Shown one piece after another: positions 12,027 through 62,540 of a DNA stretch of 64,000 nt. Made by a program: the position numbers and the translations under genes. Within the stretch, counting starts at the first letter, position 1. Every line of letters starts with the position of its first letter. Source of the DNA: an uncultured Gammaproteobacteria bacterium (GTDB lineage: Bacteria; Pseudomonadota; Gammaproteobacteria; Steroidobacterales; SZUA-146); contig CAWUKD010000002.1 of the NCBI GenBank assembly GCA_963922815.1, positions 2,128-66,127 on the forward strand, given 5' to 3'. Under the pieces are notes generated by a model. The model made no database searches. It was not told the DNA's origin and worked only from the letters and a program-made list of their open reading frames with translations.

Positions 12027-12054
12027 ATCAATAACGATTGAGTAACTGGTACGC

Positions 12055-12922: not shown

Positions 12923-13233
12923 GCAGGTCGCCTGAACAGGAGGTTAGTGACGGAGTGTAATCGATTACAGCCTGAAATGGTGCTATGCGGCATAAATTCA
13001 AGGCCATTCTGTGAGTATTCCCGCTCGGAGAGGCTGCCGTACGGGCATTCCGCGCTCGAAACCTGCTCAATCAGGTCGTTGTGGCACAGTTTCCAGATGG
13101 CCGGGTACCCCAGACTGCAGCCGCAAATCTGTCGGCAAGCTACTGAATGAGGCGCCTCCAGGCCGCCGCAATCGCGGCACGTGACAGCGGCACGGCAGAT
13201 TCTGCTACATTCGACATCGTCCGCGAAGGGAGA

Positions 13234-44848: not shown

Positions 44849-45216
44849 GCTCCTGATATAGAATAGAAAAACAAGTGATGCGGCGTTTGTGGTGCAGTGA
44901 GGCATCGGGACGGCTCACGAGCATTTTCAACATAGTCTGCGGCCGCTCAGCAACATGGGGCAGGGTGACAGAGAGGGGTGTTGCCGGCCGCGGCATCGGA
45001 ATATGTCAAAATGATCGCGCACAGGCGGCCAGCAGTGCTAGACTGGTCGCAGATCATTTGGCGGGCAAAAATAAAAAACACGCCCGAACTATCGATTTAT
45101 TGAGTACGCGCTTCAAAGATTCACGTTAAGTGAGCAGGAACGTGTTCTCGGGTTCGAAAGAGTCCATTGCGATATACCTGATAATTATAGATTGCGCCCA
45201 TTGGGGGGATAAGAAA

Positions 45217-45801
45217 ATGACAAGAATTCTCAAAGCGATTGCACTCGCTTCCATGTTTACGTTCGCTGCGTTTGCTGCCGCTGATTCGGTCACTTACACC
45301 GGCAACACGGAAACCAGTGCTGATGGTTCATGGATGCATCCCGATGCGGATTTCGCCATGCTCGATGCGGACACCACCCTGTATTCAGTTCAGGCATTCA
45401 CCGTTTCTGAAGACGGCATGTACGACATCAGTTCTGCTCAGGGCATGAACGATGCCGGTACTCAGTTTGACGGCATGATTTTCGTTTACGCCAACGCCTT
45501 CGACCCGTCAAATGGTCTATTAAACGGAATTGCGGCTGATGACGATGGCCCGTCTGGTGCAGGTAGCTCGGAAATTCTGGACCTGAGCCTCACGGCTGGT
45601 ACCACGTACTACCTGGTAACCACCGGGTTTACTTCTGAAGACACCGTGTTTGGTGCTGCTTCTGGTCCATTCAGCAATACCATTTCCGGTGACGGTGACA
45701 TTGATCTTGCTGCGCCAGTACCACTGCCTGCAGCCGTATGGCTGATGATCAGCGGTCTGGCCGGACTTGGCCTGATTCGACGACGACCCGCTGCCAGCTA
45801 G
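45217..45801 (+). CDS. secreted protein with VPLPA-CTERM (PEP-CTERM-like) sorting signal
   Basis: Start at ATG 45217 gives the signal peptide MTRILKAIALASMFTFAAFAAA. The C-terminus is VPLPAAVWLMISGLAGLGLIRRR (motif + TM + basic cluster). Confidence 0.7.
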   Translation: MTRILKAIALASMFTFAAFAAADSVTYTGNTETSADGSWMHPDADFAMLDADTTLYSVQAFTVSEDGMYDISSAQGMNDAGTQFDGMIFVYANAFDPSNGLLNGIAADDDGPSGAGSSEILDLSLTAGTTYYLVTTGFTSEDTVFGAASGPFSNTISGDGDIDLAAPVPLPAAVWLMISGLAGLGLIRRRPAAS

Positions 45802-45842
45802 ATCGGCAGTCGCACGAGCAGCGCTCGTGCCACAGTTATGAC

Positions 45843-45870
45843 AAAACCCCGCCGCGTGCGGGGTTTTTTT
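45843..45870 (+). terminator. rho-independent terminator
   Basis: AAAACCCCGC-CGCGT-GCGGGGTTTTTTT. Confidence 0.8.
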
Positions 45871-46334
45871 ATTGCGCTTACATCGTACGAAAGGTGTGAA
45901 TCACAGGGTTTCAATAGGGCCGTCCAGGGACGCTGAGCAGACTCTAGTCGCTCTGTCCGGGCAGGACTGGCCGTCCGATGGCGACTGCCAGTATCATCGC
46001 GAATAACCCCATACCAAGACGGCTTTCCACACGGTCAGGGTCTAACATCGTGCGCTGATTGTGGGCGGCGATTCACCGGTAGTTGACGGCATCCTGTATA
46101 GTCTCGTCGACGTGCCAGGTGCGTGCCCGATCGGCATGTAACGCCCGGCACGCGAAGTGACTGGAATAGGTAACCTCTCGGATCAGTGAACGATTGAATG
46201 ACCACTAAAGTTAATCAAACGTCCTTTCAGCGGAATCTCAATAGCGGGATGGACGGGTATTGCGCCAATTCGGCTGCGCGGCGAACGCGCGCGAGAATAT
46301 GCGTTGATGGGCGAGCGTGCTACGGAGCGTTGAG

Positions 46335-47336
46335 GTGACGGAACTCTACTACGCGGCCGCGTGCCAGACGGATTTCAAAGCGCCGGCAGATCGTGAGGGA
46401 ATCGCTGCCAACACGAAACGGATGTGCGCCATGCTCGAGCAGACGATCGCCGGGTATGAGCCTTTTTTTGACGTTCGTCTGTTTGTGTTTCCCGAATTTG
46501 CGCACGCCGTACCGCTCTATCAAACGACGTCGGAATTGAAAAAACGGCTTGCCGTAACATTGCCTAATGAACATACCGAACAGTATGAAAAGCTGGCCAG
46601 AAAACACGGCTGTTACATTCAGACCGGCACTTTTCTGGAGGTTGATGAGAATTACCCGGGCGCTTTGTTTAATACAACGCTGCTGATTGGCCCCGATGGT
46701 ATTCTGAGCCGGTACCGTAAAGTAAATACCTGGATACCCTGGGAGGTCCATACCTCGCCGGCGGATCTGGGAAACTATACGGAAGAGCTGTTCCCGGTGG
46801 TGGATACGGAGCTTGGAAAGCTCGGTGTTGCCATTTGCTACGACTGGCTGTTTCCGGAAACCATTCGCCAGCTGGGTTTCAACGGTGCCGAAGTTATTTT
46901 GCGGGTGTCTGCCTACATGAACCCCTGGGGTACGGCGGAACCGATGAACTGGTGGGGATTGATCAATCAGACCCGGGCGATAGAAAATACAGCGTACGTT
47001 GTGGCCTCCAATCAGGGCGCCGAGTTTGCCAACTACCCGCCGTTTTGCTGGCCAGGCGGTAGTATGGTGGTGGACTACGATGGTCGCGTACTGGCCCAGG
47101 CAGATGCGGGGCCGGGTGAGCGAGTGGTAGTTGCTCCTATCAATATCGGGCAGCTGCGACACGAGCGCGAACGACGAACCGGGCATGATATGCGTAGCCA
47201 CCTGCGCACCTCTGCCCACTCATATTTGAAACATGATTATCTCGCACCGGCGGGCGACCAGGCGATTACTATCGAGTCGCTAAACGCCCGGATTGGTGAA
47301 GGTAAAGAAACCGTTAAGAAACGCCAAAAGGATTAG
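46335..47336 (+). CDS. carbon-nitrogen hydrolase family protein (aliphatic amidase/formamidase-like)
   Basis: Glu-Lys-Cys triad contexts VFPEF, YRKVNTWIPWE and VAICYDWLFPE. GTG 46335 is preceded by GGAG with a 7-nt spacer (the ORF track starts at GTG 46317). Confidence 0.8.
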   Translation: MTELYYAAACQTDFKAPADREGIAANTKRMCAMLEQTIAGYEPFFDVRLFVFPEFAHAVPLYQTTSELKKRLAVTLPNEHTEQYEKLARKHGCYIQTGTFLEVDENYPGALFNTTLLIGPDGILSRYRKVNTWIPWEVHTSPADLGNYTEELFPVVDTELGKLGVAICYDWLFPETIRQLGFNGAEVILRVSAYMNPWGTAEPMNWWGLINQTRAIENTAYVVASNQGAEFANYPPFCWPGGSMVVDYDGRVLAQADAGPGERVVVAPINIGQLRHERERRTGHDMRSHLRTSAHSYLKHDYLAPAGDQAITIESLNARIGEGKETVKKRQKD

Positions 47337-47342
47337 ACACCC

Positions 47343-50300
47343 ATGCCCAATACTCATCTGCCTGAACAGCTAAGTCGGGTTGGTTCCCGGCTTCGCCGCG
47401 TCGCCACTATATGGCTGGCTGCTGTTTTTGTTATCGGGTGCGGCGATGCCGATGTAACGACAGGCGGTCAGGAGTCCCTGCAGCTCACGGCTAAAGATAT
47501 TGAAATCAATAATCGCGGCGTAGCGTTGATGGGCTACTTTGATTACGCGAGTGCGCGCGAGGCGTTTCGCGAGGCCGTTGATCGACAGCCGCGCTGGGCT
47601 GACGTTAAAGTTAACCTCGCCATTGCCACTTTGAATCGACAAATGGAAGGTGATGAGGTTCTCGCCCGAGGCTACCTCGAAGAGGTGTTGAGCGAAAACC
47701 CGGACAACCTTCGCGCCAGTTTCGTGTCGGGCCTGTTAGCCGAACGCGCCGGTGAAGCCGAACTGGCCAAACAGCGCTATCAACGGGTGCTGGATGAAGA
47801 TCCCAACGATGCGTATGCGGCTTACTATCTGGCGGTTCTTACTCAAACCGATGACCCGGACGCGGCGCGTGAGCTTTTTGCGCGCGCGATTCGCATAGAT
47901 CCTTACCTGCGAAGTGCCTATTACGGCGCTTTCCTGCTCCATGTGCGATCGGGTAATCGTGAGGAGGGCCTCGAAATGCAGGCTATCTACGAACGGCTGG
48001 CCGATAATCCCAGGGCTCGACTCGCAGAAACCAAATATACGCGTATGGGCAGCAAAGCCGATGCTCTGGCGGTGGGTCTGGACAGCATTCAGGACGTCGC
48101 GATCCCCCAGGGGCCGCTGTTTATGGAACCGCAGACCATTGCGACCTTTGCGGTGCCGGGAGACCGCTCCCTGACCACGGTTGATCTGGGGGATGATGGT
48201 CTGCAGGATATTTTTGTGGCAAACTTGGAAGGCCCTGCACAGGTTATTCAGGCAGGCGAGGAAGAGTATAGACAGCTTGAAAACCATCCGCTGAGCGAGC
48301 TGGGACCGATGATTGCGGTTGCCTGGTCTGATATCGACAATGATGGAAAAGTGGATCTGGCTGCGTGCGGGCCCGATTCGGTTACTGTTCATTTCAAAAC
48401 GGGCGTAGACAGCTGGGCGTTAAAGCGGCCATTGCAGTCGCTAACCGGCAACAAGAAATGCAGTGATCTTCAGCTTCTGGATGCTGACCACGATGGAGAC
48501 CTGGATCTTTTTGTCGCGTTCCAGTCGGGCGGTCATGATGTGCTGAGTAATAACGGAGATCGCTCCTTTCGCAGTTTGCGTGAAGAGCGCGATCTCGCGC
48601 TTAGCGACAGATCGGGGCGTAACCTTGTGGCCGCTGATCTCGATAGCGATCGCGACACGGACCTGCTGGTGGTAACTGCGGGTGGTGTCGACATTCTGTT
48701 TAACGACCGGCTGTGGGATTACACGCCTGCCGGCGACGTCGATGCCGCTCAGGTGCCGGGAACCCTGTTGGACACCGATCTTCTGGCGCTGACCGCGGCC
48801 GACGCCAATGCCGACGGCCGCATTGAGCTTTACGGGATAGGAGTCACAGGGCAGCTGCTGCAATGGACGCGCGATGGCGCGGAGTCCTGGACGAGTCGCG
48901 TGTTGTCGACTGTGTCCGCGAATGCGGGTTCATCCGTTGAGATGGATGTCAGTGATTTTAACGGAGACGGCACGCTGGATATGCTGCTCGTCGATGACGA
49001 CGGTTTGCGTGTGCTCAGTCTGGGTGCCGACAGCGTGACGACGCTGTTTGAATTTGAAGGCGATATTTCCAATGCGATGCATCTGGTTGCCGATGCGGAC
49101 AAAGGGCCATCAATCGTGGCACTCGTGGATACGCCGGCAGGGCAGCATTTACTGAGATTTCCGCCGGGGCCCGGCCGCGGCAAATTTGCGGCGCTGACGT
49201 TTGAAGGTCAGGAAGAAAAAGCCGATTCGATGCGGTCGAACCGATCCGGCGTTGGTACTCGCGTCGCCATACGTCGTGGCTCGCAGTGGACCATCAAAGA
49301 TAATTTTGACCGTCATACCGGTCGCGGACAGAGTTCCCAGCCCATCGCTGTGGGCCTCGGCTCTGACGAAGTCGTGGACTATATTGCGATCGACTGGTCC
49401 GACGGTGTGTTTCAGACTGAGCTGAACCTGGAGGCGGGCCGGCAGCACAACGTCACCGAGACCCAAAGGCAATTGTCCAGTTGTCCGGTTCTGTTTGCCT
49501 GGAACGGCGAGGAATGGACATTTCTGAGCGATGTACTTGGCGTGGGTGGTATCGGGTTTCTGCACGACCCGGCGGCACAGGGGGCTTCCCGTTATGGCGA
49601 ACCTCGACCATGGGAATACTTTGCGATTCCCGAAGAGCTGCTTCAGCCCATCGATGGTGCGCTCAAACTCAAAGTAACCGAGCCTATGGAAGAGCTGGCT
49701 TTGCTCGACAATGCGCAGCTTGTTGCATACGACCTGGCTCCGGGCTGGAACATGGTGCTGGATGAGCGCATGTCGACAGGACAGCCTGTTGCCACAGGCC
49801 AGCCCCGCTACTATCGGAACGAATTCAAGGCCGCGCAGGTGGTTCGCGGGGACGGCGCGGACCTGACCGCTGCAGTTGCCCAAACGGATTTTGTCGCAGC
49901 GGACCTTGGCAATGCGCACCCAAGGTTTTTGGGTATGCTCGAAACGCCACACAGCGTGGTCATGAAATTTGATGAGCCACTGAATTCGAAACGTGGACCG
50001 TTATTGCTGAAAGCATCGGGATGGGTCGAGTATCCGTACTCGCAAACCGTTTTTGCGGCCTGGCAGTCCGGGGCGTTGTACACGCCGCCGTCGTTGGAGG
50101 CGGGCGATGATGCCGGCAACTGGACGATGCTCCACAAGAACTTCGGTTATCCGGCCGGCATGCCGCGTGAGATGTCGGTTCCGCTGGGCGTGTTGCCGCC
50201 GAATACGACACAGCTTCGCCTGAGCGGAAATCTGGAAATTTACTGGGACGCGTTGAGCCTGGTCGAGATTGAAGAACCTCCCGAAGCCGATGTGGTTCGC

Positions 50301-50711
50301 CAGTTTCTGCATCTGCGCGAAGCCGAGCTCATGCAAAGCGGTTTTCCCAAGCGCATTCAGCAGCCGCAGCGGCGCCCCGACTATGATTTCAGTCAGCGTA
50401 TTCCGTTTTGGGACACGAGATATCCGGAAGGGTATTACACTGTGCTGGGTGACGTTAAACCGCTGCTCGACGAAACCGATGGCGCGTTTGTGGTCATTGG
50501 GCCCGGCGAGGATGCCGAGCTGGCGTTCGACACGCCCGGAAAATTGAACAATGGATGGACGCGTCGATACGTGTTTTTCGTTTCGGGCTATGCCAAGGAC
50601 ATGGATATGTACACCCAGGACTCTGGAACCGTGGGTCCACTGCCTGAATTCCCATCGGCAAATCGCGCCTTACATAACACCTACAACACGCGGTTCCGCG
50701 ACGGGTACTAG
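47343..50711 (+). CDS. large lipoprotein: TPR repeats + FG-GAP/VCBS beta-propeller repeats + UnbV/ASPIC domain + ~420-aa uncharacterised C-terminal domain
   Basis: Lipobox AVFVIGC. TPR-like helices span aa ~50-235. There are six DxDxDG-type repeats (DIDNDGKVD, DADHDGDLD, DLDSDRDTD, DANADGRIE, DFNGDGTLD...). The UnbV-like segment reads SNRSGVGTRVAIRRG...IAVGLG...IDWSDG. Confidence 0.8.
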   Translation: MPNTHLPEQLSRVGSRLRRVATIWLAAVFVIGCGDADVTTGGQESLQLTAKDIEINNRGVALMGYFDYASAREAFREAVDRQPRWADVKVNLAIATLNRQMEGDEVLARGYLEEVLSENPDNLRASFVSGLLAERAGEAELAKQRYQRVLDEDPNDAYAAYYLAVLTQTDDPDAARELFARAIRIDPYLRSAYYGAFLLHVRSGNREEGLEMQAIYERLADNPRARLAETKYTRMGSKADALAVGLDSIQDVAIPQGPLFMEPQTIATFAVPGDRSLTTVDLGDDGLQDIFVANLEGPAQVIQAGEEEYRQLENHPLSELGPMIAVAWSDIDNDGKVDLAACGPDSVTVHFKTGVDSWALKRPLQSLTGNKKCSDLQLLDADHDGDLDLFVAFQSGGHDVLSNNGDRSFRSLREERDLALSDRSGRNLVAADLDSDRDTDLLVVTAGGVDILFNDRLWDYTPAGDVDAAQVPGTLLDTDLLALTAADANADGRIELYGIGVTGQLLQWTRDGAESWTSRVLSTVSANAGSSVEMDVSDFNGDGTLDMLLVDDDGLRVLSLGADSVTTLFEFEGDISNAMHLVADADKGPSIVALVDTPAGQHLLRFPPGPGRGKFAALTFEGQEEKADSMRSNRSGVGTRVAIRRGSQWTIKDNFDRHTGRGQSSQPIAVGLGSDEVVDYIAIDWSDGVFQTELNLEAGRQHNVTETQRQLSSCPVLFAWNGEEWTFLSDVLGVGGIGFLHDPAAQGASRYGEPRPWEYFAIPEELLQPIDGALKLKVTEPMEELALLDNAQLVAYDLAPGWNMVLDERMSTGQPVATGQPRYYRNEFKAAQVVRGDGADLTAAVAQTDFVAADLGNAHPRFLGMLETPHSVVMKFDEPLNSKRGPLLLKASGWVEYPYSQTVFAAWQSGALYTPPSLEAGDDAGNWTMLHKNFGYPAGMPREMSVPLGVLPPNTTQLRLSGNLEIYWDALSLVEIEEPPEADVVRQFLHLREAELMQSGFPKRIQQPQRRPDYDFSQRIPFWDTRYPEGYYTVLGDVKPLLDETDGAFVVIGPGEDAELAFDTPGKLNNGWTRRYVFFVSGYAKDMDMYTQDSGTVGPLPEFPSANRALHNTYNTRFRDGY

Positions 50712-50892
50712 CGGAACGAAATAGCAATCATTCCGCTACGCGGCTAGCTGTGAACGACGGTGTAGCTTATGATCGGGCTTCCGGTGCCGTTCTATGTGCA
50801 GATAAATATTCAGAGGGCTGCGGGTGAACGACGACACGGTCGAGCATACGGCCTGTTACTAGTGCCAGGAAGATAACTTAAGCGAACCCCGT

Positions 50893-53748
50893 ATGACGCG
50901 TAGAAAAAAATATGTACCCGCGGTTGGACCGCGACTCAAGAAACTGCTGATTTTCGTTTTTGTTTTGTTTGCCCTGCTGTCGGCCAATGCGGTCTATCTG
51001 ATTGCGACCTCTATTCTGGAGTGGTCTACCGGCGAGACTTACCAGAACTTCTTCTACCAGTACATGTTTCTCGCCCATCTGATACTTGGGTTTATCATTA
51101 TCGTGCCGGTGATCGTGTACGGTGCGATACACATCAAGAATGCCCGCAACAGGCCCAACCGTCGCGCGGTAAAAGTGGGGTATGCACTGTTCGTCGTGTC
51201 CCTGCTGCTGCTGGTTACCGGGTTGACGTTGACACAGGGCGTGCCGTTTATCGAGATCAGGCATGCCGGCGCGCGAAGCAGCGCTTACTGGCTGCATACC
51301 CTGAGTCCGCTGTTTATTGGCTGGCTCTTCGTGCTGCATCGGCTGGCCGGACGCCGCATTAACTGGCGAGCCGGATTATGGGTTGGCGGCGTGGCGGCGG
51401 CGTTAACGGCCGTCGCGCTGGTCTGGCAAATGCAGGACCCGCGCCAATGGAACGTGGAGGGTCCGGAGTCGGGCGAAGAATATTTCTTCCCATCACTGGC
51501 GCGAACGGCAAGCGGCCAGTTCATACCCGAAGAAGCCCTGATGATGGATGGCTATTGCGAACAGTGTCACGCTGACACTCATGCAAGCTGGAAAGACAGC
51601 ATGCATCATCTCAGTTCATTCAATAACCCGGCGTACCTGCATTCGGTGCGAGGAACCCGCGCCATGTCGATGGCCAGAGACGGTGATGTTCAGGCGGCCC
51701 GGTTTTGCGCCGGATGCCATGACCCCGTGCCCTTTTTCAGCGGCGCTTTCGATGACCCCAACTTTGATGATGTGAATCACCCGACCGCACATGCCGGTAT
51801 CACTTGCACCAGCTGTCACGCTATTACCAATCTAAACAGCGTGCGCGGTAACGCCGACTACACGATTGAAGAGCCGCTACACTATCCGTTCGCCTACAGC
51901 GACAAGCCCACGCTTCAGGCGATCAATCGTCTGCTGGTAAAGGCGAAGCCCGAGTTTCACAAGAAGACGTTTCTCAAGCCGCTGCACAAGAGTACGGAGT
52001 TTTGTGGTACGTGCCACAAAGTACATTTGCCCGAGGAACTCAATAAGTACAAATGGCTTCGAGGTCAAAACCACTACGACGCGTTCCTCCTGAGCGGAGT
52101 GTCCGGGCACGGTGTGACCAGTTTCTATTATCCGCCCAAGGCCGAGTCGAACTGCAACGGCTGCCACATGGAACTGGAAGCCTCCGATGACTTTGGTGCC
52201 GCCGAATTTGACGATTCCGGTGAGCTAAAGGTGCATAACCACCAGTTTCCGAGCGCTAACACCGCTATCCCGCATGTGCTTGGGTTTGGAGATCGAGCCA
52301 ACGGTGCCCATCGGGATATTCTTGAAGGTTCGCTGCGTGTAGATTTGTTCGGCCTCAAAGAAGAAGGGCGCATTGACGGAAAACTGCACGCGCCTTTGGA
52401 AGACAGCAGTGAAGTGCTGCAGGCCGGCAAGACCTATTTGCTTGAAACCGTGTTGCGTACAATGACTTTGGGGCACACGTTTACTCAGGGTACGGCAGAC
52501 TCGAATCAGGTGTGGGTGGAAGTAACCCTGTCAGCCGACGGCGAAGTCATCGGCGCCAGCGGCAAGCTGGATCCTGAATCGGGCGAAGTGGATCCGTGGG
52601 CGCACTTCGTCAATGCCTACGTTCTTGACAAGAATGGCGCACGCATTGACAGACGCAACGCCGAAGACATTTTTACCGCGCTGTACAATCACCAGATACC
52701 GCCGGGCGCGGCCGATGTCGTACATTATCGCTTCCGTGTTCCACCCACAGCCCGTAACGTAACGATTGAGGCGCGCCTGCACTATCGCAAGTTTGACACG
52801 TTGTTTTATCGTTTGTTTGCTGATGATCCAGCGCTTTATAACGACCTGCCGATTATCACCATTGCTTCTGATCGTGTAACGCTCAGCGTGCAGCCGTCAG
52901 ATTCCGGGGCCGTCGAAGCCCCTGGCGATCGTGCGGCTACCCCGGTGACGGCCTTGCGCTTCAGTCAGAATCCGTCACCGATGAATCCCGAGCTTAAAGT
53001 GGATCGGGAGGGGCGTAAGCCGATTCCTGAATGGCAACGCTGGAACGACTACGGCATTGGTTTGCTACGCAAGCAGGGTGCCGGTGAGTTGCGACAGGCG
53101 GAGGCCGCGTTCAGGCAGGTGGTTGACCTTGGTCGGGCGGATGGTTCGATGAATCTGGCCAGAGTTTACCTGCGTGAAGGAAGGCTGGATGATGCCGCCT
53201 TGTCGCTTGAACAGGCGTCGGCGCATGCCACGCCGTCGCCGCCCTGGTCAATTGATTATTTTACCGGACGGGTCAACAAGCAAAATGGCTATCTCGAAGA
53301 AGCCGCGGCCAACTTCGAAAACGTTATCAATACGAACTATCAAAACGCACGCGAGCGCGGCTTTGATTTTAGTAAGGACTATCGCGTATTGAATGACCTT
53401 GCCGATACCTATGTTGAGCTGTCCCGACTGGAGCGTGGCGATGCCGGTTCCGGATTGCTGAATAAGGCGCGGGACACCTATGCCCGCGCGTTGTCCATTG
53501 ATCCTGAAAATGCGACGGCTCATTACGGGCTTTCTCAGGTGTATGCGCTGCTGGGCGATGAAGACAAAGCGAACGTACATCGTAGTGAACACGCCAAGTA
53601 CAAACCGGACGACAACGCTCGCGATTTTGCGATCAGTACCGCGCGGCGGAACGATCCGGCGGCTAACCATGCCGCGGACGCGATTGTGATTAACGACTTG
53701 CAGTGGCGCCCGGTCACCACCAATGCAAAGTCAGGGGTTTCCCATTAG
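50893..53748 (+). CDS. membrane-anchored pentaheme c-type cytochrome fused to C-terminal TPR domain
   Basis: Five hydrophobic helices (aa ~16-178). Five CXXCH motifs: CEQCH, CAGCH, CTSCH, CGTCH, CNGCH (nt 51556-52167). TPR-like repeats span aa ~700-930. Confidence 0.8.
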   Translation: MTRRKKYVPAVGPRLKKLLIFVFVLFALLSANAVYLIATSILEWSTGETYQNFFYQYMFLAHLILGFIIIVPVIVYGAIHIKNARNRPNRRAVKVGYALFVVSLLLLVTGLTLTQGVPFIEIRHAGARSSAYWLHTLSPLFIGWLFVLHRLAGRRINWRAGLWVGGVAAALTAVALVWQMQDPRQWNVEGPESGEEYFFPSLARTASGQFIPEEALMMDGYCEQCHADTHASWKDSMHHLSSFNNPAYLHSVRGTRAMSMARDGDVQAARFCAGCHDPVPFFSGAFDDPNFDDVNHPTAHAGITCTSCHAITNLNSVRGNADYTIEEPLHYPFAYSDKPTLQAINRLLVKAKPEFHKKTFLKPLHKSTEFCGTCHKVHLPEELNKYKWLRGQNHYDAFLLSGVSGHGVTSFYYPPKAESNCNGCHMELEASDDFGAAEFDDSGELKVHNHQFPSANTAIPHVLGFGDRANGAHRDILEGSLRVDLFGLKEEGRIDGKLHAPLEDSSEVLQAGKTYLLETVLRTMTLGHTFTQGTADSNQVWVEVTLSADGEVIGASGKLDPESGEVDPWAHFVNAYVLDKNGARIDRRNAEDIFTALYNHQIPPGAADVVHYRFRVPPTARNVTIEARLHYRKFDTLFYRLFADDPALYNDLPIITIASDRVTLSVQPSDSGAVEAPGDRAATPVTALRFSQNPSPMNPELKVDREGRKPIPEWQRWNDYGIGLLRKQGAGELRQAEAAFRQVVDLGRADGSMNLARVYLREGRLDDAALSLEQASAHATPSPPWSIDYFTGRVNKQNGYLEEAAANFENVINTNYQNARERGFDFSKDYRVLNDLADTYVELSRLERGDAGSGLLNKARDTYARALSIDPENATAHYGLSQVYALLGDEDKANVHRSEHAKYKPDDNARDFAISTARRNDPAANHAADAIVINDLQWRPVTTNAKSGVSH

Positions 53749-53785
53749 ACTACGATTCCGGTTTTTCTGACGCAGGCATCCGAGC

Positions 53786-55600
53786 ATGACAACAACACCG
53801 CCCGACGAGTTTTCTGACGTTCAGGATGACGCCATTATTGGTGTCTATCTGCGACGTTCTTTGTGGGTTTTCGCTGCGATTGCCCTGATCGGTGCCAGTT
53901 TCTGGTGGTGGCAGCAGCGTGAGGTGTCCGAGGGACCCGTCGTTCAGGGCAATGAAACGGGGCCGGCGGTGGTAACCACAGCCGAACCTGAGGCGCCGGC
54001 CATTCGCTTCGTCAATGTCGCGAGTGCGTCGGGAATCGAATTTGTTCATACGAACGGTGCGTATGGATTGAAGCTGTTGCCCGAGACCATGGGTGGTGGC
54101 GTGGCGTTGTTCGACTATAACAACGACGGATTGATTGATGTATTCCTGGTCAATTCGTCAGACTGGCCGTGGGAGTCAAGCGGCCAGGCGGCGACGCACG
54201 CGCTGTATAAAAATAATGGTGATTGGCAGTTCGAAAACGTTACAGAGGCTGCGGGTCTGGCGCTTACCGACTATGGAATGGGTGTTGCCGTTGGCGATTT
54301 TGACAGTGATGGTTTCGAAGATCTCTATGTGACGACGGTTGGACCCAATCGACTGCTTCGTAACCAGAATGGCGAGCGCTTTGTGGAAGTAGATCTTGGA
54401 ACACAAGGCGGTGCGACCGAGTGGAGTACCAGCGCCGCTTTCTTCGATATGGACGGCGACGGTGACCTGGATCTGTTTTCGGCGAACTATGTCGAATGGT
54501 CTCGGGACATCGATCTCGAAGTAGACTATCAGTTGACGGGCATCGGCAGAGCCTACGGACCACCGACCAACTATCGAGGCACGCAGTCCCGTCTCTGGCG
54601 CAATGATGGAGAGCGCTTTACGGATATCAGCGAAAACATTCACGTCACCAATTCCGCCACCGGCCAGCCGGTTGGCAAGGCGCTCGCTGTTCGACCTGAA
54701 GATCTAAACGGCGATGGCGCCATTGACCTGATTGTGGCTAACGATACGGTGCAAAACTTTGTGTTTCTTAATCAGGGTAATGGCTCGTTCATCGAGCAGG
54801 GCGCGCTGATGGGAATGGCATTTGATAACAGTGGTAACGCGACCGGTGCGATGGGCGTTGACTCGGCGTTTTATAAAAACGACGGTGATGTAGCGGTTGT
54901 CATTGGTAACTTCGCCAACGAAATGACATCGTTTTATGTGTCTCGCGGTAGCGATGTGTTTACCGACGAGAGCATTGTCTCTGGCATAGGACCGGACAGC
55001 AGGCGGGCTTTGAGCTTTGGGCTTCAGTTTTTTGATGCCGACCTCGATGGTCGACCCGACCTGATCACGGCTAACGGTCATGTTGAAGATGACATCAACA
55101 CCGTTCAGCCCAGCCAGCAGCACGCCCAGCCTGCGCAGCTTTTCTGGAACTGCGGTGAGGCCTGTCGTCGAACCTTCGTGCGTATTCCTGACGCCAGTCT
55201 GGGTGATTTAGCCACGCCCATTATTGGCAGGGGTGCCGCGGCTGCTGATCTCGACAACGACGGTGATCCGGACGTTGTATTAACCCAGATCGGGGCCGCG
55301 CCGCTGGTTCTGCGCAATGATGGTGGCGACCAGTCTGACGCGAACTGGCTCAGAGTTACGCTGCGCCAGACGGGTAAGAATCCGCGAGCGATTGGAGCAA
55401 AAGTCTCCGTTGCGGCGGGTGGGCAGACGCAGCGGCAAATGATCATGCCGGCTCGCAGCTATTTGTCGCAGATTCCGGCTGATGCCTTATTTGGCCTCGG
55501 AGCCGCGACAGAAGCCGCCGTCGAAATTGTTTGGCCTGATGGAGAAGTCAGTATTTACAATGGCTTAGAGATTAACCAGGTGCATGAATTGACGCGTTGA
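53786..55600 (+). CDS. CRTAC1-like protein (N-terminal anchor, FG-GAP/VCBS repeats, UnbV/ASPIC domain)
   Basis: TM anchor LWVFAAIALIGASFWWW. Repeats FDYNNDGLIDVF, GDFDSDGFEDLY, FDMDGDGDLDLF, DLNGDGAIDLI, DLDNDGDPDVV. The C-terminal UnbV-like segment reads RAIGAKVSVAAGG...LFGLG...IVWPDG. Confidence 0.8.
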   Translation: MTTTPPDEFSDVQDDAIIGVYLRRSLWVFAAIALIGASFWWWQQREVSEGPVVQGNETGPAVVTTAEPEAPAIRFVNVASASGIEFVHTNGAYGLKLLPETMGGGVALFDYNNDGLIDVFLVNSSDWPWESSGQAATHALYKNNGDWQFENVTEAAGLALTDYGMGVAVGDFDSDGFEDLYVTTVGPNRLLRNQNGERFVEVDLGTQGGATEWSTSAAFFDMDGDGDLDLFSANYVEWSRDIDLEVDYQLTGIGRAYGPPTNYRGTQSRLWRNDGERFTDISENIHVTNSATGQPVGKALAVRPEDLNGDGAIDLIVANDTVQNFVFLNQGNGSFIEQGALMGMAFDNSGNATGAMGVDSAFYKNDGDVAVVIGNFANEMTSFYVSRGSDVFTDESIVSGIGPDSRRALSFGLQFFDADLDGRPDLITANGHVEDDINTVQPSQQHAQPAQLFWNCGEACRRTFVRIPDASLGDLATPIIGRGAAAADLDNDGDPDVVLTQIGAAPLVLRNDGGDQSDANWLRVTLRQTGKNPRAIGAKVSVAAGGQTQRQMIMPARSYLSQIPADALFGLGAATEAAVEIVWPDGEVSIYNGLEINQVHELTR

Positions 55601-55614
55601 TCCTCATGAAAGAA

Positions 55615-55634
55615 TACTGTATAAATATACAGTA
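55615..55634. promoter_or_regulatory. LexA (SOS) box TACTGTATAAATATACAGTA
   Basis: Matches CTGT-N8-ACAG and 19/20 of the gammaproteobacterial consensus TACTGTATATATATACAGTA. Its last base is the A of the radical-SAM ATG. Confidence 0.8.
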
Positions 55635-56782
55635 TGAAACAAGAGCCAACCATTCAGGATCTTTTTGACGGGGCGAACAGCCGGGTGACAGCGCCCAATG
55701 CGCGTTTGCAGCGCTCTGTGCGCAGCGGTCGGGGAGTAGCCGCCTCGCCCAAACCAAGATTCGCCAGGTTCAGCAGTGAGGCAGTAAGCGATGACTGGTT
55801 CATGGAGCCGGATGACTTACCGCCGACGAAGATCCCCACCCGGGTACACGACGAGATTGTTCGCAGTATTATCAGTCGTAATCAGTCCCCCGACGTTCCG
55901 TTTGATCAGTCGATAAATCCGTATCGCGGATGTGAGCATGGCTGTGTGTATTGCTACGCAAGGCCCAGTCACAGCTTCGTCGATCTATCACCCGGACTGG
56001 ACTTTGAAACCCGCCTGTTTGCAAAGACCAATGCTGCGGCCACGCTGGAGCGCGAACTGATGGCTCCGGGTTACCAGTGTTCGCCAATTAATCTGGGCGC
56101 GAACACGGATCCTTACCAGCCGCTTGAGAAAGAACGCAAGATTACCCGGGAAGTACTTGAAGTACTGGACCGCCTGGATCATCCGGTGACCATAATTACG
56201 AAGGGGTCACTGATTCTGCGGGATCTGGATATTCTTGAACGCATGGCGCACCGTAATCTGGTGTCGGTCGCGGTCAGCATTACGACGCTCGACGACTCAC
56301 TGAAGCGAACTCTTGAGCCGCGGACGGCGTCGCCTTCTGCGCGACTAAGAGTTGTTAAGGAACTCAGTAAGCGAGGGATTCCCGTTACGTTGTTGCTGGC
56401 TCCTGTGATACCGGCGCTCAACGATCATGAAATCGAATCGATTGTGAGAGCCGCTGCAAACGCAGGGGCGACCAGTGCGCGCTATATTTTCTTGCGCCTT
56501 CCATATGAAGTAAAAGAACTGTTTGCAGACTGGTTGATTGATCACTATCCCCTGAAGGCCCGGCACGTGCTCAATCTGGTCAGCGATTCGCGCAATGGAA
56601 AAGCCAATGACTCGGACTTTTCACAGCGTATGACCGGTACCGGTCCGTACGCCAGAATGATTCAAACGCGCTTCGACAAGGTGGTTAAAAAATGCGGGCT
56701 CGATGTGACAGAGCGCCCTCAGCTCGATACGAGCCAGTTTGCGCGCAATCATCCATCCCGGTCGCAGCTGAGCCTGCTCTAG
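55634..56782 (+). CDS. radical SAM protein, PA0069 / SplB-like family
   Basis: NPYRGCEHGCVYCYARPSH (CxxxCxxC), 382 aa, with the LexA box at its start. Confidence 0.85.
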   Translation: MKQEPTIQDLFDGANSRVTAPNARLQRSVRSGRGVAASPKPRFARFSSEAVSDDWFMEPDDLPPTKIPTRVHDEIVRSIISRNQSPDVPFDQSINPYRGCEHGCVYCYARPSHSFVDLSPGLDFETRLFAKTNAAATLERELMAPGYQCSPINLGANTDPYQPLEKERKITREVLEVLDRLDHPVTIITKGSLILRDLDILERMAHRNLVSVAVSITTLDDSLKRTLEPRTASPSARLRVVKELSKRGIPVTLLLAPVIPALNDHEIESIVRAAANAGATSARYIFLRLPYEVKELFADWLIDHYPLKARHVLNLVSDSRNGKANDSDFSQRMTGTGPYARMIQTRFDKVVKKCGLDVTERPQLDTSQFARNHPSRSQLSLL

Positions 56783-58378: not shown

Positions 58379-58899
58379 TGGTCGGTTTCCATGTAGTCCG
58401 GGTAAGCGGTTTGAAAACGCCCGCTGGCGAGCGCCGCTGCGCGGTCGGCGTCGATGTCGGCTTTCGTCGTTGTACAATCGTACGGCTCATCACGCCAGCG
58501 TCGATGAAGCCAGAACGTGTAGTCCCCGGTAAGGCTGCGATACGTTCGCTTGTCATGGTCGTCCGTTAACAGTCTGTATTGATGGGTGTAGCTTTCCCCA
58601 TCGTTGTCGTCACCCTGAGCGCTGACCAGCGTAATGGTCAGCAGGTCGTTCTCCCACGACCATGTGCCTCTGTCGGTCCACTGCGATTCTGTCTTGCTCG
58701 ACAGGCAGGAAAAAAAACGCACGACAATGTCGCCGCTGGCAAGAAACGTACTGTCGGAATGGAAGGTGTTGACGCCGTCGGGTCGTATGCCATACCACGT
58801 GCCCTCGAAGTCGGGTATGACCACGGCGTCCGTGCCGGCGGCTGGCGGGTCGCAGGCCATAGTCAGAACTGACACCAGAATTATCGCAAGTGATCGCAT
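58375..58899 (-). CDS. hypothetical lipoprotein
   Basis: Lipobox VLTMAC. 174 aa, no family recognised. Its stop overlaps the glpK ATG (ATGA). Confidence 0.6.
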   Translation of the reverse strand: MRSLAIILVSVLTMACDPPAAGTDAVVIPDFEGTWYGIRPDGVNTFHSDSTFLASGDIVVRFFSCLSSKTESQWTDRGTWSWENDLLTITLVSAQGDDNDGESYTHQYRLLTDDHDKRTYRSLTGDYTFWLHRRWRDEPYDCTTTKADIDADRAAALASGRFQTAYPDYMETDQ

Positions 58900-59118: not shown

Positions 59119-60900
59119 GTGAATGTGCGTTGGCCAAAACTCTGCCTGTGTTTCTTTGTGTTCTGCCTCGGAGCCTGCTCCGGTTCAGGCCCGGACCTGC
59201 CGATTTATGAAGACGTCACCGAACTCAGCGGGCTTCAGTTTGTGCATCAGAATGGCAGCGATAATACGCTGGCCCTGCCACCCATTCTGGGCAGTGGCGT
59301 TGCGCTTTTTGATGTGGATAACGATGGCGATCTGGATATCTATCTTGTTCAGGGTCGTGGGGGGCTGGGTGGTCCGGACGAAATCTGGATTAATGAGTCA
59401 GAAGGTGACCGGCTGCGCTTTGACCGGGCTCCGGATCAGCCGGCGTTCGCGTCGGATTTTCCTGGCATGGGGGTGGCGGTAGGCGATGCCAATCTGGATG
59501 GACGTCTGGATGTTGCAGTCACCACGCTTGGCGTCAATCGCCTGCTGCTAAACCATGAAGCAGGCTTTGTCGTTTCCGGGGCCGGGGCCGGGGCCTTTGG
59601 AACTGATGAAGCCTGGAGTGCCTCTTTAGTCTGGCTGGACGCCAACGGCGACCAGCGGCCCGATGTTTACATTGCCAATGTTGCCGAATTTGATGCTTCC
59701 ATGGAGTGGCGATCGATCACCAGTCGACCGGACTATTGCGACGCCGGTGCGTATGTCCCGTTACACGATCAGCTGCTGCTTAATATTGAGACACTGGAGT
59801 CCGGTGACGTCGTCTTCGAAGATGTCAGCCTCGACTGGAATCTGGTGGCGAACAAGGCTCCGAGTCTCGGAGTTCGCGCGGGGGACTTTAACAACGATGG
59901 TCTGCCCGACGTTTACGTTGCCTCCCCTGGCGCACCCAATACGCTGTGGCTTAACGAGCGCGGGCGCAGGTTCAGTGACCTGACCCGGTCCTCCGGAGCA
60001 GCTGCAAGTTTCCTGGGCAGGTACCGGGGAAGCTTTGGCGTTGATGCCGCCGATATGGATGGCGACGATGACCTTGATCTGGTTGTGTCGCACAGCCTGG
60101 ATGAGCCGCATCAGGTCTATCTTAACGACGGGCTGGGTAACTTTATCGCCGACGATCTGATTGCAGGCGGGGTTAGCGCATCACAGAGCGGTGCCGGGCT
60201 TGTTGTGCTGGACGCGAACACCGATGGTTTCGATGATGTATTTGTTGCCAACGGAGCGACTCGCCAGCGGCAGGCACAGCTCGACGCCGGAGACCTCTTG
60301 CCGCTGCGGGAGTCGAACACGCTGTTTCTGCAGAGCAAGGAACGCGGGTATCAGCCGGAAGGTGGCACCGCTGCGATTGCGGGCACGATGGCTACAGTAG
60401 ACACGGCAACTCCTCCAGCTCACGGCGAAGCGAATGTGCCGGTGGCCGATGCACCCATAGAATTCGATGTGTGGGAAGAAAACGCCGAGCGCCTTACGCC
60501 GCGACCCCATGCGTCCCGCAGCGTTGCCTCCGGCGATCTCGATAACGATGGCGATCTCGATCTGGTGATCACAAATAATGGCGGGCCGGCACAGATTCTG
60601 CGCAGCACGCGAAACCCCGAAAACTGGATTGGAATTTCTGCTGTGTCCGAAGACACCGGGCTTGCCGTCACTGGTGCGCGGGTAAAACAACTGGACCCGG
60701 AGGCTGCGGGTACCCGCGAAATTCGACGATCGCACGGTTATCTGAGTGCCAGCGATCCACGCCTGATTTTTTATCACTTGCCGGAAGACGCAGAGTTCGT
60801 CACGTATGAGGTGACATGGCCCGGAGCACCGGCGGAGCGCTTCACTGTACCCGTCGAGCCTCGATATCATTCGCTGATTCGCGGGCAAGGCCAGCCATGA
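59119..60900 (+). CDS. CRTAC1-like lipoprotein (FG-GAP/VCBS repeats + UnbV/ASPIC-like C-terminus)
   Basis: GTG start and lipobox FCLGAC. Seven DxDxDG-type repeats (FDVDNDGDLDIY, GDANLDGRLDV, GDFNNDGLPDV, DMDGDDDLDLV, GDLDNDGDLDLV...). Confidence 0.75.
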   Translation: MNVRWPKLCLCFFVFCLGACSGSGPDLPIYEDVTELSGLQFVHQNGSDNTLALPPILGSGVALFDVDNDGDLDIYLVQGRGGLGGPDEIWINESEGDRLRFDRAPDQPAFASDFPGMGVAVGDANLDGRLDVAVTTLGVNRLLLNHEAGFVVSGAGAGAFGTDEAWSASLVWLDANGDQRPDVYIANVAEFDASMEWRSITSRPDYCDAGAYVPLHDQLLLNIETLESGDVVFEDVSLDWNLVANKAPSLGVRAGDFNNDGLPDVYVASPGAPNTLWLNERGRRFSDLTRSSGAAASFLGRYRGSFGVDAADMDGDDDLDLVVSHSLDEPHQVYLNDGLGNFIADDLIAGGVSASQSGAGLVVLDANTDGFDDVFVANGATRQRQAQLDAGDLLPLRESNTLFLQSKERGYQPEGGTAAIAGTMATVDTATPPAHGEANVPVADAPIEFDVWEENAERLTPRPHASRSVASGDLDNDGDLDLVITNNGGPAQILRSTRNPENWIGISAVSEDTGLAVTGARVKQLDPEAAGTREIRRSHGYLSASDPRLIFYHLPEDAEFVTYEVTWPGAPAERFTVPVEPRYHSLIRGQGQP

Positions 60901-62540
60901 AGCGCCTGGTATTGCTTTTGCTGGTCGTATGTCTGGCCGCTTGTCAGGCGCAGGAAAGTGTGGAGCACAGGGTTCGTCATCCCCGGCTTGATCTGCTCGA
61001 AGAGCAAGTCAGGCGCACGCTCGAAAACGCGCTCGGTCGCTGGCGCGACCAATTGGCTACGTCTGATCTGCCGGGAGATGAAGCCAGGGCCTATGCCCAG
61101 CTCGGCCAGGTTTATCTCGCCCATCATTTTGACGAGGCCGCCGCGGATGCTTTGTCCTTTGCGACCCAAAGAGTGCGAAACCCTCACTGGTATTTCTACT
61201 ACGGCACGGCTCTTGACCGCAGCTTCCGGCACGAAGAGGCAGAGCAGGCATTGTCGGCTTCGCTGGCACTGCACGATCACCCTGAAGTGCGGTTCGCCCG
61301 TGCGAAAGTACGCTCCAGGGTCGGCAACATCGCGGGTGCGCTGGACGATTTGAAGGCGTTAAAAGCGATTAGCCGCATGACCGGCGATTCCGGTGATGAC
61401 GACGTCGACTCGGGCGATCAGGAGCAGACCGACGCGGTGCCCTTGCAGGCTGCCTGGTTTGCACTGGAGGCCAGGCTGCTCGCGCATCAGCGGCAGTACC
61501 CAAAGGCCATGGAAAGCCTGATGCGAGCGCTCGAGCTTGAACCGGAGGCGACATCGCTTCACGGACCCATGGCGCAGCTGCAGCTGAGGCTGGGAAGTGC
61601 CGCCAGCGCCGGCAGGCATCGGCGGTTAGCGGGAGACGGGTTGCCCGGTTCCGAGCAGCCGCTCATGGATTCGCTGTCCTCTCTGGCGCGAGGCTCTCGC
61701 TACTACCTTGACCGGGGTCGGGAGCTGATGGCGGCACGTAACTTCGAAGAGGCCGTTGCCGATTTCGCCATCGCCGCCGACATTGCACCCAGCAGCCACG
61801 ATGCTGTGCTTGCTTATGCCCGGGCACTTGAGGTCGTGGGACAGGTTGACCTGGCGGAACAGCAGTATCTCGACGCGCTCAGGCTTAACCCCGAGTCTGA
61901 AGTAGCGCATTATTTTCTGGGGTCATTGTATGAGCGTCGTGAGCAGGATGAGCAGGCTCTGACGCATTATGCGGCGGCGATTGAAGCAGATGCTGATTAT
62001 TTACCGCCCCGGCTTTCGCTGGCCCACGCTCTGTTCGGCATCCGGCGGTTCGAAGAAGCACTCACGCACTACGCGTACTACGCCGACTCCCGCGAGAACG
62101 ACCTCGAAGTTCGGTATTACGCGGGATTGGCTGCACTGGCGATGGGCGATTGCGAGGCGGGGACCGAATGGTTCAGGCAGGCAATTAATGTTAACTCTCA
62201 TAGTCGGGCGGCGCAGGAAGGAGTCGCACGCAGTTTTGCCGTCTGCTCCAGTGATCCTTCGGAACTGAGTCGCGCGCAGGATATCGGTGAGAGGCACGAA
62301 GAAGAGCGCCCGGACGCATCCGCTGCCGAGACTCTTGCCATGGTGTACGCGGCGCTTAACGATTTTGAATCAGCTGCCCGCCTCCAGAATCTTGCCATCA
62401 GACGCAGCAATGACGAGCGGCAAAACGGTCAACGCGATCGTCTGACGCAGTACGAATCGGAGCTGCGCGCACAGGTTGCATGGCTGCCTGATTCGCCGGT
62501 CTTTGATCCGCCGCGACTGTCAATGCGAGTTTACCAGTAA
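60897..62540 (+). CDS. TPR-repeat lipoprotein
   Basis: ATG 60897 overlaps the upstream stop (ATGA). Lipobox VVCLAAC, with TPR-like A/L/Y-rich helical repeats throughout. Confidence 0.75.
   Translation: MKRLVLLLLVVCLAACQAQESVEHRVRHPRLDLLEEQVRRTLENALGRWRDQLATSDLPGDEARAYAQLGQVYLAHHFDEAAADALSFATQRVRNPHWYFYYGTALDRSFRHEEAEQALSASLALHDHPEVRFARAKVRSRVGNIAGALDDLKALKAISRMTGDSGDDDVDSGDQEQTDAVPLQAAWFALEARLLAHQRQYPKAMESLMRALELEPEATSLHGPMAQLQLRLGSAASAGRHRRLAGDGLPGSEQPLMDSLSSLARGSRYYLDRGRELMAARNFEEAVADFAIAADIAPSSHDAVLAYARALEVVGQVDLAEQQYLDALRLNPESEVAHYFLGSLYERREQDEQALTHYAAAIEADADYLPPRLSLAHALFGIRRFEEALTHYAYYADSRENDLEVRYYAGLAALAMGDCEAGTEWFRQAINVNSHSRAAQEGVARSFAVCSSDPSELSRAQDIGERHEEERPDASAAETLAMVYAALNDFESAARLQNLAIRRSNDERQNGQRDRLTQYESELRAQVAWLPDSPVFDPPRLSMRVYQ

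Follow-up and report, generated by a model that had tools for sequence, protein, structure and literature searches.

A conserved gene pair for a multihaem membrane cytochrome and a CRTAC1-like propeller, a candidate inner-membrane redox module

We analyzed a stretch of 64,000 nt from an uncultured gammaproteobacterium (assembly GCA_963922815.1, contig CAWUKD010000002.1, positions 2,128 to 66,127; hereafter, the window). We found that two of its genes, here called g3 and g4, stay together in bacteria from five phylum-level groups. g3 encodes a multihaem cytochrome of the inner membrane that ends in tetratricopeptide repeats (TPRs), and g4 encodes a membrane-anchored propeller protein of the CRTAC1 type. 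Judged from gene neighbourhoods, g3-g4 is the constant core of a gene system, and g1, g2, g7 and g8 are accessory genes, seldom found where the core is absent. The module is real, conserved and apparently undescribed, with known kinds of parts in a new arrangement. Our working notion, in which confidence and doubt are about evenly balanced, is that g3 and g4 form an inner-membrane complex that would connect the quinone pool to a periplasmic redox reaction, with propeller and TPR proteins as adaptors.

Gene boundaries were taken from a scan of the window for open reading frames (ORFs), and domains from Pfam and NCBIfam searches. The first four genes are:

46317-47336, + strand: g1, 339 aa, a CN-hydrolase of the nitrilase superfamily, predicted to be cytoplasmic, an accessory gene
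47343-50711, + strand: g2, a lipoprotein of 1122 aa with TPRs, an FG-GAP propeller, UnbV/ASPIC and a C-terminal all-beta region
50893-53748, + strand: g3, an inner-membrane cytochrome of 951 aa, one of the two core components
53786-55600, + strand: g4, a membrane-anchored FG-GAP/UnbV (CRTAC1-like) propeller of 604 aa, the second core component

An earlier note on this DNA had described g1 through g4 as one cluster. The gaps and strand that it gave (6, 181 and 37 nt, all +) came out the same in the ORF scan, and Pfam returned the same domain content. The longest ORF of g1 begins at a GTG 18 nt upstream of the start used there (46335). The translation of g1 has the Glu-Lys-Cys context and lacks a signal peptide, as had been noted. 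The description of g3 also held up, with five N-terminal helices in the AlphaFold model, five CXXCH motifs in the translation and TPRs by Pfam. Some counts changed. We count four TPR-bearing proteins rather than five. Two of three supposed UnbV proteins (g2 and g4) are above the Pfam threshold and the third (g7) is below it. The FG-GAP repeats of g2 are present, but Pfam resolves four FG-GAP_3 stretches and not six. The suggestion that the genes are functionally linked survives in altered form: the association is conserved, but as a g3-g4 core with lineage-specific g1, g2, g7 and g8 and not as a fixed four-gene machine.

Conservation of the g3-g4 pair

Relatives of g3 number in the thousands. 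The best 120 listed cover 95-100% of g3 at an identity of at least 59%, and a two-pattern scan with one genome per species confirmed at least 584 relatives. A search of 1.84 billion cluster representatives with residues 1-700 of g3 gave 631 clusters (50% identity) at E<=1e-30. For counts of neighbouring genes we used the 80 best g3 loci, which are 56-81% identical to g3, and searched their six-frame ORFs with the proteins of the window. These loci are from Gammaproteobacteria, Planctomycetota, Acidobacteriota (Thermoanaerobaculia), Latescibacterota and one genome labelled Deltaproteobacteria, and come from sediment, soil and ocean lineages. The nearest one, at 81% identity, is from an uncultured gammaproteobacterium.

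By the earlier note's own criterion, its cluster would have been refuted if the co-occurrence were confined to this genome. This is decisively not so: the arrangement is found again in dozens of unrelated genomes, which is beyond chance. A g4 orthologue (E from 1e-88 to 1e-283) comes immediately after g3 in 67 of 71 informative loci, that is, loci with at least 1 kb of sequence downstream of g3. The estimated distance between the two genes is short (median 8 nt), and in 24 of 69 loci they overlap by 4 nt. Pairwise identities of g3 and of g4 are correlated (r=0.83 over 1830 pairs, from 61 g3 orthologues with identities of at least 54% and a median of 62%). The association extends to distant relatives of g3. 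The haem and TPR matches were kept in all 10 distant relatives scanned (32-54% identity), and all three that were informative for neighbours (32-36% identity) had an FG-GAP_3/UnbV neighbour, two of them downstream and one upstream.

The type of membrane anchor also co-varies. Membrane-bound cytochromes come with a hydrophobically anchored partner, and the sole secreted cytochrome comes with a secreted partner. In g2 and many of its relatives, TPRs and a CRTAC1-like propeller are in one chain; that is, domain types that are split between g3 and g4 also occur joined. The translational coupling, the co-variation of the anchors and the TPR/propeller fusions favour a physical complex of g3 and g4.

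De novo clustering of the neighbours of g3 found nothing universal besides g4. Response-regulator/kinase pairs, sulfatases and ABC transporters near g3 recur only within lineages. All four genes, in the order g1-g2-g3-g4, are found in two cultured bacteria, Wenzhouxiangella marina (complete genome CP012154) and Pseudomarimonas salicorniae, where at most junctions the start codon of one gene overlaps the stop codon of the gene before it. In Wenzhouxiangella sp. EGI_FJ10305 there is, in addition, a pair resembling g7 and g8 that comes after two inserted, unrelated genes, as in the window.

Several loci have a more elaborate arrangement. Locus L074, from a genome labelled Deltaproteobacteria, has two cytochrome-propeller pairs in tandem (2555-7482 and 9905-13821). 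One pair is orthologous to g3-g4; in the divergent one, a 742-aa ORF that matches g3 (E=2e-59) precedes an FG-GAP ORF of 901 aa. Based on these tandem pairs, the cytochrome and propeller genes appear to duplicate as a unit. In L023, L035, L036 and L056 (Acidobacteriota, Latescibacterota and one unclassified), three extra FG-GAP genes and a g2-like gene form a co-directional array upstream of g3. Arrays of three or four extra propeller genes are found in the Acidobacteriota and Latescibacterota loci, and the number of propellers per cytochrome is variable. In L009, L010, L021 and L022, and also in L020 and L065 (Gammaproteobacteria, Acidobacteriota), genes for an OmpR-type response regulator and a histidine kinase lie just downstream of g4 on the opposite strand and point toward it. 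The window has a similar regulator/kinase pair several kb upstream of the module, at 38060-40254 on the minus strand. It is possible that such a pair could regulate the module.

The core proteins g3 and g4

Annotation pipelines now in use name g3 only as 'tetratricopeptide repeat protein', and NCBIfam has no specific model for either g3 or g4. Pfam finds Cytochrome_C554 and TPRs in g3, and the CXXCH motifs are at residues 222, 272, 305, 371 and 421. The AlphaFold model of g3 (pLDDT 80.5, pTM 0.80) has four parts: helices at residues 13-180, a helical haem domain at about 200-480, a beta-sandwich at 481-667 and TPRs at 713-928. In the window, the parts of g3 are:

50929..51432, + strand: membrane domain of five helices, with His62 and His80 on helix 2 and His135 and His149 on helix 4
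51505..52893, + strand: periplasmic pentahaem domain (aa 205-480) and beta-sandwich (aa 481-667), of the cytochrome c552 / MccSep type
53029..53676, + strand: periplasmic TPR tail (Pfam TPR), with the conserved C-terminal motif KYKPDDNARD...PAANHAA...VIYDL

The N-terminus of g3 is basic, as are the loops after helices 2 and 4. By the positive-inside rule, this indicates a cytoplasmic N-terminus, with the haem domain, the sandwich and the TPRs on the periplasmic side. The TPR tail is modelled with a pLDDT above 90.

His62, His80, His135 and His149 are invariant in 68 orthologues of g3. They are on modelled helices 53-84 and 125-151, and one pair is near each face of the membrane, the classical layout for two bis-His b haems. 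Based on these four invariant membrane histidines on helices 2 and 4, we infer that the membrane domain holds two b-type haems, each with bis-His ligation. No cytochrome b family matched above threshold, so it is the histidine pattern that speaks for these haems. The family PF01292 (cytochrome b561 / FdnI-HydC) was considered for the membrane domain and rejected: it has no match in g3, and one homologue scored 22.2 where 30.1 is required. Three of 16 diverse family members matched PF01292, at E values of 0.08 or more. Sub-threshold matches to PF01292 and DUF4405 are the only family similarity of the domain. A profile of the membrane domain, run against the PDB, found no solved structure and no solved cytochrome b. 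By these searches, it is an uncatalogued five-helix domain that is not assignable to a known family.

The periplasmic haem unit has solved relatives. Its five CXXCH motifs are kept in 86-87 of 87 diverse relatives, as are four histidines outside the motifs (His238, His356, His450 and His528), and the haem region is helical in the model. We searched solved structures with a profile made from 15 diverse g3 relatives. The profile matched the pentahaem cytochrome c552 of Thermochromatium tepidum (5ZE8, E=2.1e-13), cytochrome c554 (E=6e-6) and, below threshold, MccSep (9WT8). By this homology, the haem and sandwich unit of g3 is a member of the cytochrome c552 family. Among solved structures, c552 comes closest to the periplasmic part of g3, with a match over haems 1-3. 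Like g3, c552 has five CXXCH haems followed by a beta-sandwich, and the sandwich motif VGHxFPxG is co-linear with PHAMPTG in c552. In contrast to g3, c552 is a chain of 435 residues, and its aligned regions have no counterpart of the membrane domain or the TPR tail.

MccSep (ExtKL) of Geobacter sulfurreducens is a polysulfide reductase and a soluble homotetramer (9WT8). It has an alpha-helical pentahaem cap and an Ig-like stem, and its active site consists of a His/Cys-ligated haem and a selenocysteine on a loop of the stem. The pentahaem cap and Ig-like stem are common to MccSep and g3, and NCBIfam gives a weak ExtKL match for g3. The strands of the g3 sandwich are at residues 481-667 in the model, with a GHxxPxG-type loop that aligns to the loops of c552 and MccSep. 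The MccSep stem loop aligns residue by residue with GHTFTQGT of g3: G527-H528-T-F-T-Q-G533-T534, which is invariant, is co-linear with G318-H319-S-I-P-D-G-Sec325. The earlier note had called g3 an electron-transfer protein, a description that can now be refined to a protein whose periplasmic part is of the c552 family and resembles an enzyme. g3 may be catalytic rather than a simple wire, because its haem unit is of the c552 family and resembles MccSep, which is an enzyme and the one protein of this fold group whose activity is known. In addition, LSGVSGHG and GHTFTQGTADSN, the counterparts in g3 of the active-site loops of MccSep, are invariant, so a reaction may occur at these loops and not a mere relay of electrons. 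Sequence conservation of g3 is unusually high (median 62% across phyla), and we count this in favour of catalysis.

CRTAC1/ASPIC-UnbV propellers occur from bacteria to humans. To our knowledge, no bacterial member has an established function. g4 is a member of this family by its Pfam matches (FG-GAP_3, 123.3 bits in five stretches; UnbV_ASPIC, 60.6 bits) and it matches the structure of human CRTAC1 (9ETN) at E=2e-15. It has a single N-terminal membrane anchor in the translation, and most of its invariant residues are calcium-loop Asp, Asn or Gly. FG-GAP_3 repeats with Dx[DN]xDG calcium loops are shared by g4, g7 and the middle of g2, as is UnbV_ASPIC (sub-threshold in g7). Animal CRTAC1 is a secreted matrix protein, whereas g4 represents a bacterial orthologue group that is anchored in the inner membrane and has an acidic cytoplasmic tail. 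The tail (DDxIIG, then Arg/Lys) precedes the anchor helix and is conserved in the three g4 proteins inspected (window 53786-53860, residues 1-25; L085, from 17135; L086, from 17060). It is conceivable that the acidic tail of g4 contacts the conserved basic segments of g3 on the cytoplasmic side of the membrane.

If g3 and g4 form a complex, it might work as follows. Electrons would pass between quinol/quinone and the two b haems held by the four histidines on helices 2 and 4 of the g3 membrane domain, and onward through the five c haems of the c552/MccSep-type periplasmic domain. The loop of the beta-sandwich would reach one of the haems, which in MccSep is the active site; LSGVSGHG and GHTFTQGTADSN would be the corresponding loops in g3 and a possible site of reaction. 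The TPR tail of g3 and the calcium-type propeller g4, itself anchored in the membrane, would provide the constant surface for partner contact. The three lipoproteins (g2, g7 and g8) would serve as interchangeable adaptors, capturing substrate or presenting it through their TPR, propeller and sandwich modules, the latter resembling carbohydrate-binding modules (CBMs). In those lineages that have g1, this cytoplasmic amidase would act on a product or precursor that contains nitrogen. It is possible, and we suggest it only tentatively, that g3-g4 is an unrecognised and widespread quinol-coupled periplasmic oxidoreductase, in which a c552/MccSep-type unit is placed on a new dihaem membrane domain and substrate is delivered or held by a CRTAC1-type calcium propeller.

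Several observations weigh against these proposals. Four g3 loci (L002, L049, L055 and L069) are without g4. No cytochrome b family was above threshold for the g3 membrane domain (Pfam on cut segments and 16 diverse members; profile against the PDB), and only 67 of 87 diverse relatives have the histidine pair on the cytoplasmic side. The similarity to MccSep is sub-threshold (E~0.06), and both catalytic residues of MccSep are absent from g3. Thr534 replaces Sec325 in the aligned loop, and a residue at about Ser404 replaces Cys239, by position count in a sub-threshold co-linear alignment. With both residues replaced, g3 cannot share the Se/S chemistry of MccSep. There are enough conserved histidines in g3 for five bis-His c haems, as in a pure electron wire. 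g4 has no conserved Cys/His cluster suggesting a redox cofactor or metal site, which leaves its role in a redox reaction unexplained, and no transporter is present within the cluster to connect the periplasm with cytoplasmic g1. Literature searches (UnbV/FG-GAP/CRTAC1, multihaem/TPR and Wenzhouxiangella) yielded no description of the module.

Some of these points would fit a g3 that is only a conduit. It is possible, though we doubt it, that g3 does no more than carry electrons from the quinone pool to a periplasmic enzyme that is separate and unlinked, or to a soluble acceptor, with g4 and the TPR tail stabilising or localising it. Five bis-His haems could be supplied by the four nearly invariant histidines outside the motifs together with further near-invariant ones, both catalytic residues of MccSep are missing (one of them by position count), and the solved relative c552 is without known activity. 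Fusions of cytochrome b and multihaem c domains, such as CbcL of Geobacter, are quinol oxidoreductases. However, a conduit would not explain the obligate, co-evolving propeller partner, nor the extreme conservation of the non-haem loops WLRGQNHYD..LSGVSGHG and GHTFTQGTADSN, and de novo clustering of neighbours gave no candidate acceptor enzyme conserved beside g3-g4. Alternatively, the propellers could be the clients: g3 would oxidise or modify them, making a cross-link or derived cofactor, as MauG does with methylamine dehydrogenase. We consider this unlikely. One g3 can have a variable number of CRTAC1-like genes around it, g4 is without a recognisable cofactor site of its own, and TPR domains commonly bind unfolded or C-terminal peptides, all of which would suit maturation of propellers. 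Against this, g4 has no conserved cluster of Cys, Trp or Tyr that would suggest a derived cofactor, the 1:1 adjacency and translational coupling of the two genes resemble those of a stoichiometric complex, and CRTAC1-family genes presumably far outnumber g3 genes in such genomes.

Two further explanations seem to us less probable still. Transfer of electrons to extracellular minerals or humics, in the manner of MtrC/OmcA, is quite improbable, given that g3 has a five-helix anchor in the inner membrane (in the model), that clustering of neighbours found no conserved porin or outer-membrane cytochrome nearby, and that the host genus Wenzhouxiangella is described as universally aerobic. What speaks for it is the Pfam domain Mtrc-MtrF_II-IV_dom, which is above its cut-off of 30 in three g3 relatives (46.4, 35.1 and 33.9 bits) and below it in g3 (19-23 bits), and the order of a pentahaem and then a beta domain, which recalls domains I-IV of MtrC. 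We think it very improbable that the genes are independent in function and are adjacent through common descent or as a mobile island. Some adjacency here is merely shared ancestry, as when g5, the gene after g4, follows it in only two relatives, and most of the genomes are metagenome-assembled. But g3 and g4 are adjacent over five phylum-level groups at 54-62% identity, and this adjacency survives inverted order and holds in paralogous and distant pairs. The association of g1 persists as well, whether co-directional or divergent.

We return to a quinone-linked g3-g4 complex as our working notion. It draws on the conserved adjacency, the domain content, the haem motifs, the conserved histidines and the homology to c552. 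The b haems, coupling to quinol, physical complex, catalysis at haem, adaptor roles and link to g1 are what we infer from these.

Accessory genes and surrounding DNA

g1 is a CN_hydrolase (PF00795, 130.4 bits with a cut-off of 23.2). Its predicted catalytic triad is Glu60 (FPEF), Lys135 (YRKVN) and Cys174 (AICYD), and all three residues are invariant in 21 orthologues. g1 shares the fold signature and the Glu-Lys-Cys context with the nitrilase-superfamily amidases AmiF, AmiE and Nit1/Nit2. In contrast, it scores only 16-26% of what NCBIfam requires for an equivalog (formamidase NF009803, 105.8 with 406 required; aliphatic amidase NF009802, 70.6 with 427 required). Its best relatives in the PDB reach only E~1e-21. 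Based on these comparisons, g1 is a distinct branch of the nitrilase superfamily, with its own tight orthologue group (59-89% identity) that is tied to this gene system.

We also looked at the association from the side of g1, in 80 loci (59-89% identity) from a metagenome scan. In 50 of the 80 loci there was an FG-GAP/TPR gene within 1 kb of g1, and only four were clearly without such a gene within 3 kb on both sides. g3 was found in 20 of the 26 loci that have at least 4.5 kb of downstream sequence. From the side of g3, 14 of 51 loci had a g1 orthologue. These were mostly in Gammaproteobacteria, and also in Planctomycetota and Acidobacteriota, sometimes on the opposite strand; that is, the association is kept in both co-directional and divergent orientation. 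Among the entries listed in a proteome supplement for Wenzhouxiangella AB-CW3 there is one 'nitrilase', and it has different neighbours.

The giant lipoprotein g2 has a lipobox in its translation and matches TPR families, FG-GAP_3 (71.8 bits, four stretches) and UnbV_ASPIC (26.6 bits) in Pfam. The TPRs are at about aa 45-245, the FG-GAP propeller at about aa 270-630 and UnbV/ASPIC at aa 636-701. The remainder, an all-beta region at aa 706-1122, has no Pfam match:

49458..50708, + strand: C-terminal domain of g2, beta-sandwich/jelly-roll modules, 417 residues

The AlphaFold model of this domain is all-beta (pLDDT 86.7, pTM 0.88). Foldseek gave weak matches only, to APC10/Doc1, discoidin, CBM32 and CBM35, and no enzyme fold was among them. 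The best specific matches were to APC10/Doc1 (probability up to 1.00) and CBM32 (0.99), at E values of 1e-3 to 1e-2 and query-normalised TM-scores of 0.17-0.22. The invariant motifs of the domain include GWVEYPYS and GYPAGMPR. The C-terminus of g2 thus models as a set of CBM-like beta-sandwiches. The earlier note had raised capture of a polymeric substrate as one possibility, and this CBM/discoidin-like model lends the idea weak support.

There are more than 1300 relatives of g2; of the best 120 listed, almost all span its full length, with identities of 42-76%. A g2-like gene with the C-terminal domain is present in 22 of 51 loci, and in 17 of these 51 it is immediately upstream of g3. In the window, the spacer between g2 and g3 (50712-50892) is 181 nt. 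There is no such spacer in Wenzhouxiangella and Pseudomarimonas, where g2 and g3 adjoin or overlap, and in L001 an 84-aa ORF separates the g2-like gene from g3.

Upstream of g1, a terminator scan of the DNA gave the following as its strongest site:

45843..45867, + strand: intrinsic-terminator-like hairpin and T-run, 10-bp stem with 6 G-C pairs, then TTTATT, 3' of a VPLPA-CTERM gene

The same scan found no comparable site on the + strand within g1-g4. The hairpin likely marks the 5' boundary of a g1-g4 transcription unit. The upstream neighbour (45130-45867, including the terminator) encodes a 223-aa protein with a VPLPA-CTERM sorting signal of the PEP-CTERM type. Such signals are normally handled by an exosortase.

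The genes downstream of g4 are:

55634-56782, + strand: g5, radical SAM protein of the PA0069 family (NCBIfam, 485 bits), 33 nt after g4
56900-58477, - strand: g6, FGGY kinase
59119-60900, + strand: g7, FG-GAP lipoprotein (lipobox), accessory, separated from g4 by the unrelated g5 and g6
60897..62540, + strand: g8, TPR lipoprotein, accessory, probable start at ATG 60897
62689, running off the window end at 64000, + strand: a further TPR gene

We considered g5 and g6 as parts of the system and rejected both. g5 follows g4 directly only in two close relatives (L005, 13845-14966, and L013, 13892-14845) and is 5 kb away in L006; its adjacency is probably inherited synteny. g6 is on the opposite strand and never follows g4 elsewhere, and in Wenzhouxiangella other inserted genes are found at this place.

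The FG-GAP repeats of g7 are clear and its UnbV_ASPIC match is 18.2 bits with a cut-off of 23.4 (E=0.0024). A g7-like gene is directly after g4 in L053. g8-like genes are found after g4 in six loci (L008, L025, L026, L027, L053 and L078). The lipobox of g8, MKRLVLLLLVVCLAAC, is at residue 28 of the longest ORF, which overlaps g7 by 85 nt (60816-60900). With the ATG at 60897 as the start, the lipoprotein signal is clean and g8 overlaps the stop codon of g7 by 4 nt, and because of this overlap translational coupling of g7 and g8 is suggested. The TPR protein at 62689-64000 may be the counterpart of TPR proteins of about 600 aa downstream of the module in L005, L006, L025, L026 and L078. By eye, the C-terminal halves of those proteins look sulfotransferase-like.

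Farther upstream in the window are a GH16 glycoside hydrolase with a dockerin-type domain (10284-12026) and a glucose/sorbosone-dehydrogenase-like propeller with thrombospondin type 3 repeats (13147-14901). These are unusual calcium-binding appendages on secreted enzymes, and they fit the theme of the FG-GAP calcium loops.

Significance and comparison with known systems

The module links two large families that lack an explanation, the CRTAC1/ASPIC-UnbV propellers and the pentahaem c552-type cytochromes. Both gain a concrete hypothesis, a membrane-anchored redox complex that would be fed from the quinone pool. The module provides a first point of entry for experiments on the bacterial proteins related to CRTAC1, and g1-g4 can be tested in cultured hosts. 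A g3 that proved to be catalytic would be a new enzyme of respiration or detoxification in marine- and soil-labelled Gammaproteobacteria, Planctomycetota and Acidobacteriota. If the complex is an oxidoreductase as suggested above, it would give bacterial CRTAC1/ASPIC-UnbV proteins their first biochemical role, and the membrane domain of g3 would represent a new fold family of membrane cytochrome b.

We compared g3-g4 to systems with similar parts. Hydrazine-synthase-like clusters of non-anammox bacteria include a CRTAC1-family gene, although the role of this FG-GAP gene is not discussed there (PMC12758564). This is the only published instance we found in which, as in g3-g4, a CRTAC1-family FG-GAP gene is among genes for periplasmic haem proteins. 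The partners in those clusters are different: they are homologues of HZS alpha and beta-gamma, and g3 shows no sign of being either. PtdA (ptdABCDEFG) also differs from g3 in its surroundings, as the genes around it encode a porin, other multihaem proteins and a membrane protein similar to ferric reductases, and TPR/FG-GAP genes are not among them (bioRxiv 10.1101/2023.11.21.568154).

Two classes of cytochromes were tried for g3 and rejected. For the MtrC/OmcA/MtrF class, PF22113 reaches 19-23 bits where 30 is needed, and g3 has one pentahaem domain, an inner-membrane anchor and no conserved porin neighbour. For the NapC/NirT/CymA class, there was no match of g3 to PF03264 at E<=10 (a homologue had E=0.96), and g3 has five helices and five haems rather than a single helix and a tetrahaem domain.

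In CbcL, a cytochrome b domain with two haems and a multihaem c domain are joined in one protein. We know of no TPR tail or propeller partner in CymA/NapC/NirT, NrfH, ImcH or CbcL. Compared to these quinol-oxidising cytochromes, the membrane domain of g3 is N-terminal, has five helices and is below all family thresholds, and no homology to NapC/NirT was detected. The concept is the same: like CymA/NapC/NirT, NrfH, ImcH and CbcL, g3 would be an inner-membrane link from the quinone pool to periplasmic haems.

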